64,000 nt of DNA from Leptospiraceae bacterium (GCA_040217195.1 JAVJNR010000001.1:64001-128000), one strand, 5' to 3'; positions 35,033 to 40,867 are shown, counted from the first letter of the stretch. Made by a program: numbers and translations. Notes: generated from the sequence alone by a model not told the origin.

Positions 35033-35066
35033 GATAGCTCCCACCAGGAATAGACTTTCTTCTCAG

Positions 35067-35100
35067 GGGCCGCCGAAGTATGGGTGGCCCTTTTCATTTT
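35067..35100 (+). terminator. Intrinsic terminator after pepA
   Basis: GGGCCGCC...GGTGGCCC followed by TTTTCATTTT. Confidence 0.7.
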
Positions 35101-35347
35101 CGTGCATCAACTATGCAGGCTCAGTATCCATGGTTTCTTCGGGATAGGTGCTAACTCCAGGTCGCTTCACACTTTGATGGATCTTGATCTTTGCTCAATT
35201 GTGAATAATCTATTACCTGCAAACAGGAATAATGTCAAACGCATGGCTGTGGAGCCTGCGAATCGGTTTAATACGGTATCCAAAAATTCCTATTCTGTGC
35301 AGGAATTCGATTCCTTCTAAAAAGGTATTTGAAATCTATCGGGCGGT

Positions 35348-35806
35348 TTGGAGATTCAATGCGTGACCCTTCGCTGGCAACAATTTGTTGCGAGTCTCCT
35401 GGTATGCCTGCTGGGTGTCTCGTTTTCAGGCTATACAGTCTGCCATGATGTCTGGAAAGAATCCCGGACTGGTTGGACTATAATTAACGTAGCACAGACT
35501 GATCCATTGGAGGTTACACAGAACGATTCCGGGCCTGGCTTTCAAAATAGTACGGCTTTCTCCGAATACTTCCAATCCAGAGGCTGCCAGGATAGGCATT
35601 GCATGCCGGAAAGCTTCCTGGATCATTTGCTGGAAAAGGGCGGATCGATCTGGAAAGCTACATCTGCACTTCTCATTTTTCAATCTGTAGAATCCTGTTT
35701 TGAACTGGATTTGATGCAGGTTTCTACCATTAATCCAGCACATAGAACTATCCAGGTCTCCATTCGCCGACTGCTTCCTCCCTCCCATGCTCCTCCTGCT
35801 GCATAA
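35348..35806 (+). CDS. Putative secreted leader / translation-arrest peptide (CutF/CruR-like) of the metal efflux operon
   Basis: N-terminal signal-like segment, Cys/His residues, C-terminal LLPPSHAPPAA; 29 nt upstream of the TolC start. Start may be the GTG at 35363. Confidence 0.65.
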   Translation: MEIQCVTLRWQQFVASLLVCLLGVSFSGYTVCHDVWKESRTGWTIINVAQTDPLEVTQNDSGPGFQNSTAFSEYFQSRGCQDRHCMPESFLDHLLEKGGSIWKATSALLIFQSVESCFELDLMQVSTINPAHRTIQVSIRRLLPPSHAPPAA

Positions 35807-35831
35807 AGGCACAAACCCTTTTGCAGGAGGA
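35791..35831 (+). promoter_or_regulatory. SD-sequestering hairpin (anti-SD TCCTCCTGC : SD GCAGGAGGA)
   Basis: 35791-35799 is the exact reverse complement of 35823-35831; inner stem AAAGG/CCTTT. Confidence 0.75.
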
Positions 35832-35835
35832 AAAA

Positions 35836-37134
35836 TTGAAACCATTAACCATTCGATATTTAATTCCATTGACCGGTCTATTCGCTTTCGCAGGATTCTT
35901 ATCCAACTTAAGTGCAGAGGACTCACCGGATAAACAATCCATCGAGAGTCCGGAGTGCCCGCTCAACGGTCCGTCAGATGCACTTAAGTGCGCTTTGAAC
36001 AGAAATCCAGAAGTGCTTCATGCCAGAATGCGCTTTCAGGAAAGTCAGGCAACAAAGGACATTGCCGATAACGTACCCAATCCATCTCTGGCCGGGCAGT
36101 ACATGTTTTCTTCGGGCGAAGCGGAACTGGAATACAGGCATGTGATCGAACTGGGTGATAGAAGGGAACTTAGAACCAGAGAAGCAGATGCTGAGATTCG
36201 CTTGCGAGCCCTGGAACTGGAGATGGCCAGGCAGGATACCATTCTAAGCACAGTCATGGCCCTCTATCAGCTAGAACATATACAAGAAGAGTTGAAGTAC
36301 CTGAACGAAACCATCCAGGCCTTTAATGCAGCCATATATCGATTGTATCGACTGCCCAGCCGGGATGCGAATCAGAATACAAGTCTATTTACATATCTAA
36401 TGGCCCGGGATTCCCTTCGGCAGCAAAAACTGGAAGCCCAGGACCGATGGAATCAGATCAGACGTAATCTGGAAGTTAAACTGGGCCGCTCCCTGGATGA
36501 CCAGGATCTTTCGCGAATCGCAGCGGGACATCCTCAAAAATGGCCGGCTATATCTGAAGATTTCGGGAAGTCCCTGGAACAGGCCCATGCCAGTCAGGAA
36601 GTTTCCCGGGCAACCTATAGCCATCGATTGGAGTCCAGTCGTATCTGGCCGGACATAACCATCGGTCCCAGGATTTCGCTTCAGAAATCTCAGTCCGGTG
36701 GATTTTATTCCAGAGAACGTAGCAGCAAAGAATTAGGACTGAGCTTCTCGGTGACTCTTCCTCTGTACAACCAGTATACCGGTGAGCAGGACAGGGCCCG
36801 TGCCCGGGAACACTCGAGCGAAATCCAGAAGGAGAGAACAGATCGGGGCATTCAAAGCGAATACAGGTACATCGTTCGTTCTTACAGACAACATGTCAGT
36901 GGCCTCAAAACTTCGCCCACAATGCGTATCCTCGAAGGAAGAAGGTATGCCGTTCTGGGTTATCTTCGTCGAGGCCTGTTGAGCCCGGCCCTGTTGGTTG
37001 AATTTCATAGAACCTACGGAGAACACGTGCATCAGTACCATGCAGCACAGCTAAGAGCTTTGAGCATGCTCTGGAGAAGCTATGCTCTAACAGGGAGAAT
37101 CCTGGATGAAGAGATTATCGAAAGTATTAAATAA
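35836..37134 (+). CDS. TolC/CzcC-family outer membrane efflux protein
   Basis: Signal peptide, ALNRNPEV, PNPSL, WPDITIG and SVTLPLYN OEP-type motifs. AGGAGG SD before the TTG at 35836. Confidence 0.85.
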   Translation: MKPLTIRYLIPLTGLFAFAGFLSNLSAEDSPDKQSIESPECPLNGPSDALKCALNRNPEVLHARMRFQESQATKDIADNVPNPSLAGQYMFSSGEAELEYRHVIELGDRRELRTREADAEIRLRALELEMARQDTILSTVMALYQLEHIQEELKYLNETIQAFNAAIYRLYRLPSRDANQNTSLFTYLMARDSLRQQKLEAQDRWNQIRRNLEVKLGRSLDDQDLSRIAAGHPQKWPAISEDFGKSLEQAHASQEVSRATYSHRLESSRIWPDITIGPRISLQKSQSGGFYSRERSSKELGLSFSVTLPLYNQYTGEQDRARAREHSSEIQKERTDRGIQSEYRYIVRSYRQHVSGLKTSPTMRILEGRRYAVLGYLRRGLLSPALLVEFHRTYGEHVHQYHAAQLRALSMLWRSYALTGRILDEEIIESIK

Positions 37135-37696
37135 TAGGTTCTGCAGAACTACTTACAGGAATGGTTGGATTCCTTTTCTCAAATTGACCATTGTTCTACA
37201 GTGCATCGCTTTTCTGATCCTACCGGGCTGCAAAGGACAATACCAGCAATCCGATTCCGGGAAATCCACGGAGGATAGCCAGAAGATATCGCAGCCACAG
37301 GATAGTCATGGCCATTCTCATTCCGGACATGGACAGTCCCGAAATACTGGAAAGGACATGGCCATTATTGAAGCTGATGAAAGTCGAGGCATTATCCTGG
37401 CTGCGAAAGCCATTAAAACCTGCAATATTCGATTCTCCAGTCCGGGCGCTTACGGTTTGGAAGATTTACCGGCCACTTCCCATGTTCGGACAGGTCAGGC
37501 CATACTTGTTTACGTAAGGATCAGTAACCGGATCTTTCCAGTGCTTATTTCAGGCACCATCGATGGGATCCCGGGACTTCGCTCTAAAGGTGAGGTGCCT
37601 TTCGCAGAGGTTGAAGTCGTTATTCTAAACGCAGATTTAACTCATCTGGGCTACCTGGAAGCATTTGGTGCCTCGGGTTCAGGTCATGGTCACTGA
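37106..37696 (+). CDS. Short His-rich lipoprotein in the adaptor (CzcB) position
   Basis: Lipobox-like ILPGC, HGHSHSGHG, LPATSHV...VYV and C-terminal GHGH. Lies between TolC and the RND pump. Confidence 0.65.
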   Translation: MKRLSKVLNNRFCRTTYRNGWIPFLKLTIVLQCIAFLILPGCKGQYQQSDSGKSTEDSQKISQPQDSHGHSHSGHGQSRNTGKDMAIIEADESRGIILAAKAIKTCNIRFSSPGAYGLEDLPATSHVRTGQAILVYVRISNRIFPVLISGTIDGIPGLRSKGEVPFAEVEVVILNADLTHLGYLEAFGASGSGHGH

Positions 37697-37747
37697 TGAA
37701 CCTGGACCTGCGATTCATTGTTCCATCACTTTCAATCAGGAGATTTC

Positions 37748-40700
37748 ATGTTTGATCGAATCCTTCGATATTCTGTATTTAATCCGGCAGCGGCCATCAT
37801 GCTGGCCGCGACCTTGCTTCTGGGAGCTATAGTTGCCTATCAGTATTTGCCCATCGATGCAGTCCCGGATATAACAAACGTCCAGGTGCAGATAATGACC
37901 AGAGCCGAATCTCTGGATGGAGAAACCATTGAGGCCAACATTACCTATCCCATAGAAAGCAGCATGGGGGCGGTTCCCAGAGTTCAGGAAGTGCGTTCGG
38001 TTACGCGCTTTGGTCTTTCCGTGGTTACCGTAGTCTTCGAGGAAGGCACCGACATCTACCTGGCACGTCAGCTGGTTAACGAGCAGCTTTCCACTCTGGA
38101 TCTGCAGGGTTATAAGCCCAGGATGGGCCCCATTGCCACCGGACTGGGAGAGATCTATCATTACAGTTTAGATGTTAAAAATCCGTCCAGCGATCCGCAA
38201 AAGCGTCTGGAACAATTGAGTCGGCTTCGCACGATCCAGCAGTGGGATATTAAACGAAGGCTGCTTTCCGTGCAGGGAGTGGCAGAAGTGAATACCATTG
38301 GTGGATTTGAGGAAGTCTACTTTGTGCAGCCGGACCCTGCACTCATGGCTCGATATGGAGTTCATTTCGATGACATCAAACGAGCTCTCATTGAAAGCAA
38401 TCGAAATGCAGGAGGGGGCACTTTTCAGCAATCTGCCAATCAGCTCATAGTCCAGGGTGATGGTCTGGTGCGATCTACTGGAGAAATTGAATCTCTACCT
38501 CTTAAACAACTACCGGATTTGACCACTTTACGAGTGGGTGATGTGGCCCGGGTGGGTCTGGACCGGGAAGTGCGCACCGGAGCTGCTGTAATAAACGGTG
38601 AGGAAGGAGTTCTGGGTACGGTATTTATGCTCCTGGGGGAAAACAGTCGAACTGTATCCAACCGAGTGGACCGCCAGATGCAAGAGATTCGTGCCGCACT
38701 ACCCGAAGATGTGGAATTAAGAACTCTGTACAATCGCTCTTATCTTGTGGATGGCACCATTGAAACAGTTCAGGAAAATCTGGCTTTTGGAGCCTTGCTT
38801 GTAGTTGCTATTTTGCTTTTTCTAACAGGAAATATTCGAGCAGCTCTCATTGCCTCTGCTGTGATTCCTTTATCTCTTGCAGCAACTCTTATAGGAATGT
38901 ATTTTACCGGAGTATCGGCCAATCTGATGAGTCTGGGGGCTCTGGATTTTGGTATCATCATTGATGGAGCTGTTATTGTAATCGATCAATGTGTGCATCG
39001 TGTTCAGCGCAGACGAAATGAACTGGGCCATGACCTGGATAGAAATGAGATTCGCCAGGCGGTTGCCTCGGCTTCGGTGGAAATTCGCAGGGCAGCAGGA
39101 TTCGGCCAGATAATCATTCTAGTGGTCTTCCTACCAATGTTCGCATTAACCGGAATCGAAGGTAAGATGTTTCGACCCATGGCTGCTGCTTTTTGTTTTG
39201 CTTTGCTGGCCGCCTTTGTCCTGGCTTTTACTGTTGTTCCTGCTCTGGCTGGAATCTTCTTAAAAAGTTCCTCTCGAGAGTCCAGAATTACTGCTTTGCT
39301 GGAAGATTACTATTCCAGGATGTTGGACCGGGCTTTCGAGTTTCGTAAATTGGTTCTGGGTATTGCAGTAGCTCTCATCGCCATCGCTGCTATTGCATTG
39401 AGTACGCTTGGAGGGGAGTTTATTCCCCAGCTATATGAAAGGGCCATTGCCATGCAATTTGTTCGTCCACCTTCCATTTCACCGGAAGCTTCGGTGAAGT
39501 TAGAAGAGATATCGCATGGAGTTATTCAAGAGTTCCCTGAAGTGGATCAGGTGTTTACCCGGATTGGGTCGGCAGAGATTGCCACAGATCCAATGGGAGT
39601 GAACCTGGGAGACTGCTACATAATGCTAAAGGCCAGAAGCCAGTGGCCAGCAGTGCAGGGCAGGGTAAGAAGCCCGGATGAACTTAGAACTGCATTGCGC
39701 CAGGAGCTGCAGAGTCGAGTACCGGGACAGCGAATTCTAATGAGTCAGCCAATTGAACTGCGGTTCAATGAATTGCTGGAAGGAGCCCGGGCGGATCTCA
39801 CTTTGAAGATTTATGGAGAAGACCTGAGAATTCTTCAAGATCTCAGCGAAAAAGCGGCCGTAATTGTTTCATCCATTCCCGGAGCCGGAAATGCGGAGCC
39901 AGAGATTCGAGGACAGATACCGGTAATTCGAGTGGAACCGGATCTCCAGGCCCTTCGCAGCCTGGGGCTGAGCAGAAAGGAAGTACTTGATACACTTTCC
40001 ATGGGCCTGGGAGGCGAAGACACCGGGTATCTTTATCGTGGCGTTCGCAGATTTCCCATTCGACTTCGGCTGAATGAGAGTCAGAGAAACCTGCAAACCC
40101 TTGAAAGTTTACCTGTGGGAACCACAGAAAGTTCCACAGAACCTCTTGGAACTCTGGCAAACATACGAGAGATCAAAACATTTGAGATGATCAAAAGAGA
40201 CTCCATGCAAAGAAGGGGGGCTATTCTGATCAATCCGGAAACTACCGATACGGAGGGCCTGGTGGAAGCAGCGCAACAGGCTCTGGACGAGCAGCTGGAT
40301 CTACCGGCCGGCTATTTTATGGAATGGGGAGGTAGTTTCAAGAATCTGCAAAAAGCCCGTCAGCGACTTTCCATAGTTGCACCTCTGGCATTTCTTATTG
40401 TATGTTTGATGATCTATTCTGCTTTTCGCGACTGGGTGCGAACGATTCTGGTACTGGCCGGAGTACCTTTCGCTCTGGTAGGCGGAGTCATTGGTCTGGC
40501 TATTTCGGGACAATCCTTGAGCATTTCTGCCTCAGTGGGTTTCATCGCTTTGTTTGGTATTTCGGTACTGAACGGCGTGGTACTTATGAGTCGCTATCGG
40601 GATCTAGCTGCTACCGGCATGTCCGGTCGGGAACTGGCCATATCGGGAGCGAAAAGCCGATTACGCGCCGTGGCGATGACGGCTTTAACGGACATATTCG

Positions 40701-40867
40701 GATTTATGCCCATGATGCTGGCCACCGGCCTTGGTGCCGAGGTGCAACGTCCCCTGGCTACGGTTGTGGTCTGCGGAGTCTTTACATCGTCTTTTGTAAT
40801 TCTTTTTGTACTACCCCTTATGCACTCTTTGTTGGAGCCCTTCCTTAAGGTGGATTCAGATTCTTGA
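37748..40867 (+). CDS. czcA: CusA/CzcA-family heavy-metal efflux RND transporter
   Basis: LPIDAVPDITNVQVQI, TGLGEIY, SLGALDFGIIIDG and GAEVQRPLATVV motifs. The DFG-type TM4 points to divalent cations. AGGAG SD before the ATG at 37748. Confidence 0.92.
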   Translation: MFDRILRYSVFNPAAAIMLAATLLLGAIVAYQYLPIDAVPDITNVQVQIMTRAESLDGETIEANITYPIESSMGAVPRVQEVRSVTRFGLSVVTVVFEEGTDIYLARQLVNEQLSTLDLQGYKPRMGPIATGLGEIYHYSLDVKNPSSDPQKRLEQLSRLRTIQQWDIKRRLLSVQGVAEVNTIGGFEEVYFVQPDPALMARYGVHFDDIKRALIESNRNAGGGTFQQSANQLIVQGDGLVRSTGEIESLPLKQLPDLTTLRVGDVARVGLDREVRTGAAVINGEEGVLGTVFMLLGENSRTVSNRVDRQMQEIRAALPEDVELRTLYNRSYLVDGTIETVQENLAFGALLVVAILLFLTGNIRAALIASAVIPLSLAATLIGMYFTGVSANLMSLGALDFGIIIDGAVIVIDQCVHRVQRRRNELGHDLDRNEIRQAVASASVEIRRAAGFGQIIILVVFLPMFALTGIEGKMFRPMAAAFCFALLAAFVLAFTVVPALAGIFLKSSSRESRITALLEDYYSRMLDRAFEFRKLVLGIAVALIAIAAIALSTLGGEFIPQLYERAIAMQFVRPPSISPEASVKLEEISHGVIQEFPEVDQVFTRIGSAEIATDPMGVNLGDCYIMLKARSQWPAVQGRVRSPDELRTALRQELQSRVPGQRILMSQPIELRFNELLEGARADLTLKIYGEDLRILQDLSEKAAVIVSSIPGAGNAEPEIRGQIPVIRVEPDLQALRSLGLSRKEVLDTLSMGLGGEDTGYLYRGVRRFPIRLRLNESQRNLQTLESLPVGTTESSTEPLGTLANIREIKTFEMIKRDSMQRRGAILINPETTDTEGLVEAAQQALDEQLDLPAGYFMEWGGSFKNLQKARQRLSIVAPLAFLIVCLMIYSAFRDWVRTILVLAGVPFALVGGVIGLAISGQSLSISASVGFIALFGISVLNGVVLMSRYRDLAATGMSGRELAISGAKSRLRAVAMTALTDIFGFMPMMLATGLGAEVQRPLATVVVCGVFTSSFVILFVLPLMHSLLEPFLKVDSDS

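Follow-up and report, generated by a model that had tools for sequence, protein, structure and literature searches.

Does a small exported-type open reading frame (ORF) directly ahead of a heavy-metal efflux operon act as a switch for the translation of that operon? The question is raised by a 64,000-nucleotide (nt) stretch of DNA from Leptospiraceae bacterium (GCA_040217195.1 JAVJNR010000001.1:64001-128000; hereafter the window), in which such a leader precedes genes for a TolC-type outer membrane efflux protein (OEP) and a CzcA-type resistance-nodulation-division (RND) pump, and for which an original prediction had proposed a ribosome-stalling switch. The best reading of our analysis, to which we assign a probability of roughly 0.58, is a cis-acting translational switch of the CutF type for a divalent-metal efflux operon. 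On free mRNA, the leader's last codons very probably pair with the Shine-Dalgarno sequence (SD) of tolC and block initiation, and this gating of the SD is well supported by folding and comparison. From there we infer two further steps: pausing of ribosomes at the leader's diproline, which appears likely, and control of that pause by periplasmic metal, for which the odds are slightly better than even.

A leader ending in His-Ala-Pro-Pro precedes tolC

The leader encodes 147 amino acids from a GTG start (35363-35806, plus strand) and has the tail RRLLPPSHAPPAA, followed by a TAA stop at 35804-35806. The frame is open back to 35348, from where an ORF of about 150 residues had originally been proposed. 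Its exported-type character stands, but as a start the TTG at 35348 was replaced by GTG 35363, which is the start in the public gene call P0001 and keeps the same distance to the His site in orthologues. Residues 1-23 comprise a basic N-terminus, a hydrophobic helix (2-21 in the model) and a conserved Gly23, an assignment made by inspection. The diproline is Pro144-Pro145 of the 147 residues, and the window leader's CxxxxC sits 61 residues before the His-Ala-Pro-Pro motif (HAPP). The parts of the leader are as follows.

35363-35806, plus strand: leader ORF of an unnamed family, comprising signal, His/Cys site 1, Cys/Glu/His site 2, linker and xAPP
35363-35431, plus strand: signal-peptide-like N-terminus, residues 1-23 (sequence; modelled helix 2-21; Gly23 conserved)
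35441-35446, plus strand: candidate metal site 1, formed by Cys27-His28, the window's counterpart of the family motif HxHH (sequence, alignment)
35585-35635, plus strand: candidate metal site 2, Cys75-x4-Cys80-x2-Glu83-x4-His88-x2-Glu91 (alignment; modelled helix 85-93)
35786-35797, plus strand: HAPP codons, the candidate pause site, with the first Pro codon (35792-35794) in the P site (sequence; motif class as in PMC10987492 and PMC12992588)

The predicted structure, of low confidence (mean predicted local distance difference test, pLDDT, 61.9; predicted template-modelling score, pTM, 0.30), consists of the signal helix and helix 85-93, with the rest mostly unfolded. No Pfam or NCBIfam family matched the window leader. 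A search with the DUF2946 model (PF11162), proposed earlier as a check, gave no match on the leader in the window genome or at the leader loci of five other genomes; DUF2946 and DUF6769 were both dropped as family names for want of a match at leader loci.

Predicted pairing between the end of the leader and the tolC Shine-Dalgarno

The bases TCCTCCTGC (35791-35799), within the last leader codons, are the exact reverse complement of GCAGGAGGA (35823-35831), which contain the SD of tolC. An inner stem (AAAGG, 35805-35809, with CCTTT, 35817-35821) spans the stop codon, and tolC begins with TTG at 35836. All of these elements, together with the HAPP end of the leader, are present in the sequence as they had been described.

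35791-35799, plus strand: anti-SD arm, the 5' arm of the outer stem (sequence, folding)
35805-35821, plus strand: inner stem-loop spanning the stop codon, pair probabilities 0.62-0.82 (folding)
35823-35831, plus strand: SD arm of the TolC gene (sequence, folding)

The proposed fold of the leader end was borne out: 35760-35850 folds at -18.4 kcal/mol with the SD buried (z -2.08; 4/200 shuffles equally good), and the shorter segment 35777-35846 reaches z -3.08 (2/200). The outer stem exists in two registers, with pair probabilities of about 0.6 and 0.35-0.4, and the SD is covered in both. We then expressed occlusion as an SD-opening cost, that is, the energy needed to free six SD bases, either on naked mRNA or after masking 15 nt counted from the P-site Pro, the length of a stalled ribosome's footprint from that codon. 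In the window, the cost drops from 11.0 kcal on naked mRNA to 1.6-3.3 kcal with a ribosome at HAPP, while a ribosome at an upstream LPP leaves it unchanged (11.3 kcal). The gap between leader and tolC is 29 nt. Taken alone, the window helix is modest evidence beyond chance: Pro-Pro is encoded in this genome most often by CCTCCT (161/1250), and 19 of 600 synonymous recodings of the leader tail occlude the SD equally strongly. The strong evidence is comparative.

Predicted Shine-Dalgarno gating recurs at old, divergent loci

The window TolC was matched in 13 of 61 relatives, at 19 loci. The orthologue search that had been suggested for an upstream ORF with a terminal xPP succeeded at 17 of the 19, each with a hydrophobic N-terminus as well; one of the remaining loci was cut and one had no match. 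With a 47-row leader profile, matches were obtained in 19 of the 401 genomes searched for the phylum and in 20 of the 156 searched for the order, which added 24 loci that had not been found through TolC. The next gene in these 24 encodes an OEP in 20 (one truncated below the cut-off, one at the cut-off), an RND pump in one and a secreted ORF of 110 residues in three; behind this small ORF lies an OEP gene in one case and a copper ATPase region in another. A CzcA of the DFG type lies in 17 of 20 extended regions (18 new ones and two found through TolC); of the other three, one breaks off within the pump gene, another contains a broken OEP, and in the last no such CzcA is present. Between the 29 full-length OEPs the median identity is 16%, and only 6 of 406 pairs exceed 60%; loci so divergent are old and largely separate lineages, though not statistically independent. 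A metagenome scan returned four loci, all near copies of known ones.

After 10 near-identical copies had been dropped from 44 loci, 34 remained for comparison with 95 ordinary same-strand gene pairs of the window genome, for which ORFs were called crudely and a pseudo-P site was set four codons ahead of the stop. Under the footprint, the SD-opening cost falls by at least 2 kcal/mol in 28 of the 34 loci (median fall 5.0), as against 9 of the 95 controls (mean 0.08), which bears out the expectation of a conserved anti-SD. The native codons lie above the mean of their synonymous recodings in 29/34 loci (mean +2.6 kcal; 60 recodings per locus, local codon usage), compared with 53/95 controls (+0.03; 30 recodings per pair, genome usage). 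The SD partner is on the Pro-Pro codons at 15 loci, elsewhere inside the footprint at 12 and outside it at seven; in seven of those 12, non-Pro codons form the anti-SD (Asn-Leu, Ala-Ser, Ser-Ser, Leu-Leu, Ser-Leu). When 15 loci chosen for short gaps or shifted arms were folded singly, all 15 buried the SD, with z between -0.16 and -6.46 and with inner stems unrelated in sequence. The 34-locus comparison leads us to reject chance pairing from Pro codons for the family as a whole, though it would be plausible if only the window were considered. Among the 95 controls, one pair had a fall as large as those of leaders (10.6 kcal).

The recurrence of leader, terminal xPP, metal-ligand residues and SD-covering helix before OEP/CzcA genes across the phylum upholds the comparative part of the stalling switch as first proposed, while the pause and its control by metal are read from analogy. 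It also bears on an arrangement of the CruR type, in which a paused ribosome would shield a C-rich Rho or cleavage site at the leader end and the hairpin would be secondary. The leader tail is C-rich and G-poor (35770-35799), CruR itself uses RAPP for such control (PMC9426467), and several family members have intergenic gaps of 90-160 nt with weak SD pairing. The window, however, has a 29-nt gap with the helix directly on the SD, codons across loci are selected for SD pairing, and a search for an intrinsic (U-tailed) terminator between leader and tolC found none. We consider this arrangement highly improbable.

The nature of the targets speaks to a further possibility, a SecM-like monitor whose default pause is released by Sec pulling, so that the pump would be made when export or the proton motive force falters rather than in response to metal. 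Arrest peptides of the RAPP type are classically export monitors (PMC12992588, PMC10987492), TolC is itself an exported protein, and Atlas features of the leader resemble SecM (0.94, 151 shared features), which is a lead only. The genes behind the leaders are nevertheless heavy-metal RND systems and, once, a copper P-type ATPase region, with no sec genes among them, and His, Cys and Glu are the only residues conserved between signal and tail (47-row alignment). On this balance an export monitor seems improbable.

The leader family conserves candidate metal ligands and a terminal diproline

A family profile built from 13 leaders yielded 57 representatives in a HMMER search (E<=0.001), where a word-index protein search had found three proteins. 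The common layout is a signal peptide, GxHxHH, CxxxC-xx-ExxxxH, about 60 residues and then RAPP. Among their last few residues, 55 of the 57 members have an xPP, and the terminal motif is RAPP in 38, QAPP in four, RSPP in three, RGPP and RPPP in two each, a single variant in six and absent in two; since the profile contains RAPP and kin are not independent, these counts are partly circular. The alignment holds 47 of the 57 members, 10 that were extended, truncated or without PP having been left out, so the invariance of the prolines in it is partly by choice. Conserved positions in its N-terminal part are Gly23 (40), His25 (38), His27 (40) and His28 (43), followed by Cys75 (33), Cys80 (38), Glu83 (44), His88 (47), Glu91 (38) and Arg142 (38). 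The distance from His88 to Pro144 is 55-69 residues in 44/47 (median 63) and 56 in the window.

No family member reaches a Pfam cut-off: DUF2946 matches none of the 13 profile leaders and only weakly one of 54 members (16.3 bits against a cut-off of 23.7). A cluster look-up for the family returned no names.

The window leader departs from its family in that Thr25 and Cys27 replace two His and His142 replaces Arg. The His of HAPP, taken at first for a conserved feature, is not one, as the nearest orthologues end in QAPP, QGPP and NAPP and the wider family in RAPP. On the OEP tree the loci with HAPP, QAPP, QGPP and NAPP leaders group together in a single clade (support 0.915) nested among relatives with RAPP, which indicates that the Arg was lost once and that the His is incidental. 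The first His of HxHH was lost in the same clade; QAPP is also present in members with an intact HxHH. Orthologues only 27-32% identical nonetheless keep PP, Cys80, Glu83, His88 and the hairpin.

A Gly-x-His start resembles the amino-terminal Cu/Ni-binding (ATCUN) site. Signal cleavage before the conserved Gly would leave most members with such a start, the window protein lacking that His.

A soft pause controlled by metal would fit the window lineage

In the mechanism that we propose, one mRNA would carry leader, tolC, a mini-czcB and czcA, and the leader would be threaded through SecY during its synthesis. The exit tunnel and the SecY translocon together span about 55-65 residues. With Pro144 in the P site, Cys75-His88 lie 56-69 residues back, so that the predicted site would just be reaching the periplasm. 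By default, export and EF-P, which the window genome encodes, would clear the diproline quickly and the hairpin would re-form. Metal bound by the nascent chain in the periplasm would prolong the pause, during which a ribosome on the Pro-Pro codons is computed to cover the 5' arm and free the SD; the SD would stay open and pump synthesis would rise. Judged from the pump, the inducing metal would be Zn, Co, Cd or Ni, with Cu also allowed. Because the target is an exporter, metal would have to switch expression on, which is the direction of CutF. The replacement of the Arg of RAPP in the window lineage (H, Q, Q, N) points to a weaker, EF-P-sensitive pause like that of CutF rather than to the hard arrest of ApdA/ApdP, and a soft, tunable pause would fit this lineage best.

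Several observations weigh against this mechanism. In the window, a terminating ribosome also opens the hairpin (3.6 kcal), nearly as well as a paused one, and the RNA data therefore cannot separate pausing from plain coupling. Six loci show no fall in opening cost (L009, L040, L056, L058, L061, L070), and singly only 10 of the 34 reach p<=0.05. The circularity of the motif counts belongs here too, as does the spacing between His88 and Pro144, which spreads over 55-81 residues and is looser than the one to two residues given for DUF2946 (PMC9426467). Finally, ApcA, ApdA and ApdP, in which arrest is resistant to EF-P, are described as tolerating no replacement of the Arg (PMC12992588), yet the window has His at this position, and HAPP/QAPP upstream ORFs (uORFs), which arrest in vitro in a His/Gln-dependent manner, are reported to do so less well in vivo, perhaps owing to EF-P (PMC10987492).

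The termination result gives most room to the main rival, plain coupling with a CzcI-like product, in which any finishing ribosome would open the hairpin and the released protein would bind metal in the periplasm and tune the pump. It is compatible with the RNA numbers, given the drop to 3.6 kcal at termination, and with a leader that has an export signal and conserved His and Cys; a precedent is CzcI of Cupriavidus, whose gene precedes czcC and which quenches CzcCBA activity (PMC10127602). What coupling leaves unexplained is the terminal xPP in 55/57 members, 38 of them with RAPP, a motif that proteomes are reported to avoid (PMC12992588), CzcI being said to lack a proline motif (PMC9973294). 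Nor does the leader model contain a folded domain. We regard this rival as unlikely.

The loss of Arg, in turn, raises the prospect of a decayed switch: the family would stall, with the window lineage merely coupling translation or its helix being a by-product of Pro codons. In keeping with decay, H, Q, Q and N occupy the Arg position in one clade, the first His of HxHH is missing from that same clade, CCTCCT is the dicodon used most for Pro-Pro in this genome, and changes in poly-C length break or fuse two copies of a plasmid paralogue. Decay sits poorly with the persistence of PP, Cys80, Glu83, His88 and hairpin among such divergent orthologues, with QAPP occurring alongside an intact HxHH, and with a paralogue (L014) that has rebuilt its anti-SD from Ala-Ser-stop codons. 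Like the CruR-type arrangement, it is highly improbable.

The leader probably falls in a class catalogued in silico

The original prediction had known of no such system in spirochaetes or on a CzcA-type operon; at the computational level this goes too far, since the class has been catalogued in silico (PMC9973294, PMC12992588). In PMC9973294, the criteria for CutF-like proteins are their length, a signal, PP near the C terminus and a nearby gene on the same strand, and the proteins make up 29 clusters; their commonest neighbour is the OEP (CusC/CzcC/SilC) of RND systems, and Spirochaetota are scarce but present. With 147 residues (limit 150), PP within the last 15 residues (Pro144-Pro145) and a same-strand metal-related gene within 1000 nt (the OEP 29 nt downstream, with a CzcA-type RND pump in the operon), the window leader, given its signal-like N-terminus, would probably be a member of this class, although its own family is without a database name. 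Source data of PMC12992588 list RAPP uORFs before TolC (530), RND adaptors (620) and CusA/CzcA (50, 28-fold enriched), and one row is a leader with the window-family layout before TolC; the accessible part of that source holds no experimental test of RAPP uORFs before TolC or CusA/CzcA.

The closest parallel is CutF-cutO of Rhodobacter capsulatus, with which the window leader shares a probable Sec-type signal, a Cys/His site, a C-terminal proline motif, a short gap before a metal-detoxification gene and an SD-shielding stem-loop opened, here by computation (11.0 to 1.6-3.3 kcal), by a ribosome at the leader end. CutF is reported to work through a pause and an SD stem-loop (PMC9973294; bioRxiv 10.1101/2025.02.05.636593), the pause at PPP being EF-P-sensitive and overridden by copper (bioRxiv 10.1101/2025.02.05.636593). 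The window leader differs from CutF in lacking a DUF2946 match, in ending in xAPP rather than PPP, in preceding a divalent-type CzcA rather than a copper oxidase, in its ligands (GxHxHH + CxxxC + ExxxxH in the family, CH + CxxxxC + ExxxxH in the window) and in placing the anti-SD within its own last codons.

With CruR of Bordetella pertussis (PMC9426467) it shares a length of about 145 residues, probable export, a RAPP-like end and a position at the head of a metal-handling operon. In CruR, however, the CxxC is described as lying at a fixed spacing of 45 residues, the gap as 162 nt long, termination as Rho-dependent and the target, an importer, as being shut off by metal (PMC9426467), unlike the 29-nt gap, SD hairpin and exporter target seen here. 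The CxxC 45 residues before RAPP that marks CruR and DUF2946 is absent, the family having mostly CxxxC.

ApdA, ApdP, SecM and the HAPP/QAPP uORFs resemble the window leader in their R/Q/H-A-P-P end and in being small secreted uORFs (PMC10987492; PMC12992588), and an SD-shielding stem is also found in secM-secA. The tested RAPP/RQH arrest peptides are described as preceding sec/yidC genes and carry no conserved metal site; HAPP and the localization signal place the window leader with the RQH family (PMC10987492), whereas its position, not before sec or yidC, does not. Nor does it have the irreplaceable Arg of the ApdA/ApdP type, which is His in the window and Arg in most relatives. CzcI of Cupriavidus metallidurans is likewise a small periplasmic protein encoded directly before czcC (PMC10127602; PMC9973294), but it is reported to be without a C-terminal proline motif and to act after release by quenching the pump.

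In a literature search that covered few subscription papers, leaders of this kind turned up in no experimental work on CzcA-type operons or on spirochaetes, and neither the window family's motif set nor the conserved anti-SD was described. The only experimentally tested metal-sensing leaders that it returned were CutF and CruR; both respond to copper, and the genes that they control do not encode efflux pumps. Czc-type operons of Caulobacter are reported to be metal-induced with no regulator nearby (PMC3637150), and CzcRS not to control czcICBA in Cupriavidus (PMC10127602). The locus bears on whether arrest leaders sense metals besides copper and regulate czc-type pumps, and on whether HAPP, QAPP and NAPP act as tunable pauses in vivo. 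It is also a compact, testable case (a 147-residue leader, a 29-nt gap, one hairpin and a divalent-metal RND pump), for which 34 natural variants point to the residues and base pairs to alter.

The operon and its flanks

35065-35099, plus strand: intrinsic-terminator-like hairpin after the upstream pepA (M17 aminopeptidase), 10 pairs, T tail
35329-35356, plus strand: possible promoter, TTGAAA, 16 nt, GAGATT, ending 6 nt before the leader GTG (sequence)
35836-37134, plus strand: TolC/CzcC-type OEP, 432 residues, TTG start (PF02321, 51.5 bits)
37106-37696, plus strand: short His-rich lipoprotein-like ORF, 196 residues, resembling only the C-terminal domain of the CzcB adaptor (no Pfam match)
37718-40867, plus strand: CusA/CzcA-family heavy-metal RND pump (TIGR00914, 1041 bits)

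The nearest solved structure to the window CzcA is ZneA, and the pump's fourth helix carries DFG-x3-DGA, given as a divalent-cation pump motif in PMC3637150, with the VEN that follows replaced by IDQ. For the 196-residue ORF, an Atlas feature match of 0.94 to a CzcB_C cluster serves as a lead only. Several loci (among L077-L096) have CzcA immediately behind the OEP, their operons lacking an adaptor gene. The weak TTG start of tolC had been made part of the switch. It holds up as a start, being spaced 5 nt from GGAGG like the ATG of orthologues, but not as a switch element, for among the 34 distinct loci TTG occurs once (as does GTG).

The terminator-like hairpin behind pepA suggests that the leader operon has its own promoter. 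A promoter candidate lies at the same place in L002-L004; a consensus promoter scan did not flag the one in the window. Given that position, a leaderless or near-leaderless leader mRNA is possible. Leaders carry an SD at 7 of 31 loci and their target genes at 31 of 31, and a TTG-type -35 box 33-39 nt before the candidate start was seen at 14 of the 31, against 10.5% of background windows, the box pattern having been widened after a first look and three loci having no start. The scarcity of SDs and the placement of the -35 box suggest leaderless mRNA. czcI2 has been reported to be leaderless (PMC10127602).

Further leaders and paralogues

The window genome contains a second leader, a His-rich secreted ORF of 187 residues ending in IPPPRC (L097:9310-9949, minus strand, G000:C1), which is not homologous to the window family by profile. 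Its Pro codons pair with the SD of a different RND pump gene in a helix of 12 bp (z -4.41, 0/200 shuffles), and the SD-opening cost falls from 14.5 to 3.2-4.3 kcal. That RND gene also starts with TTG, and an OEP comes next. Leaders of this kind head three of the five heavy-metal-type RND operons of the genome. More broadly, and tentatively, the family may be an arrest leader that senses divalent ions (Zn, Co, Cd, Ni) instead of copper and serves as the principal, or even the sole, metal regulator of czc-type pumps in free-living spirochaetes. It would act through a leaderless, constitutively transcribed uORF whose nascent chain would sense metal in the periplasm by way of SecY and gate the SD of the pump, with a pause retuned in evolution (RAPP to H/Q/N-APP or PPP), the same switch having been reached independently by the His-rich leader. 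If so, induction by metal would have a mechanism in those czc operons that lack a regulator gene nearby.

A paralogous NAPP leader-TolC-CzcA operon lies at G000:C9 77895-81963 (L014, L098) on an 82-kb contig that appears circular, as CzcA runs across its ends; a ParA-like gene is nearby. Copies with 98-99.7% identity occur in three further species of the genus and on two metagenome contigs, so the operon is probably mobile. In L015 and L017 the poly-C run of the NAPP codons differs in length, one tail being shifted and one fused in frame to TolC; this is either an assembly error or phase variation, and four other copies are intact.

In one genus of a neighbouring family (L052-L055, L069), leaders keep GxHxHH, have lost the cysteines and gained a further hydrophobic segment, and their terminal motif is PPP; their gaps measure 24-28 nt and their SD hairpins are strong. 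Another locus (L092, G028:C78 1-20000) holds three leaders within 12 kb, which precede an RND pump, a small secreted ORF with a copper ATPase region, and a small ORF-OEP-CzcA operon; the first of them also buries the SD of its target. Finally, a secreted Cys/His ORF of 153 residues without a terminal PP (G000:C2 44627-45088, minus strand) stands before a CusA-type operon, and the next SD behind it lies in a hairpin wholly inside the gap.

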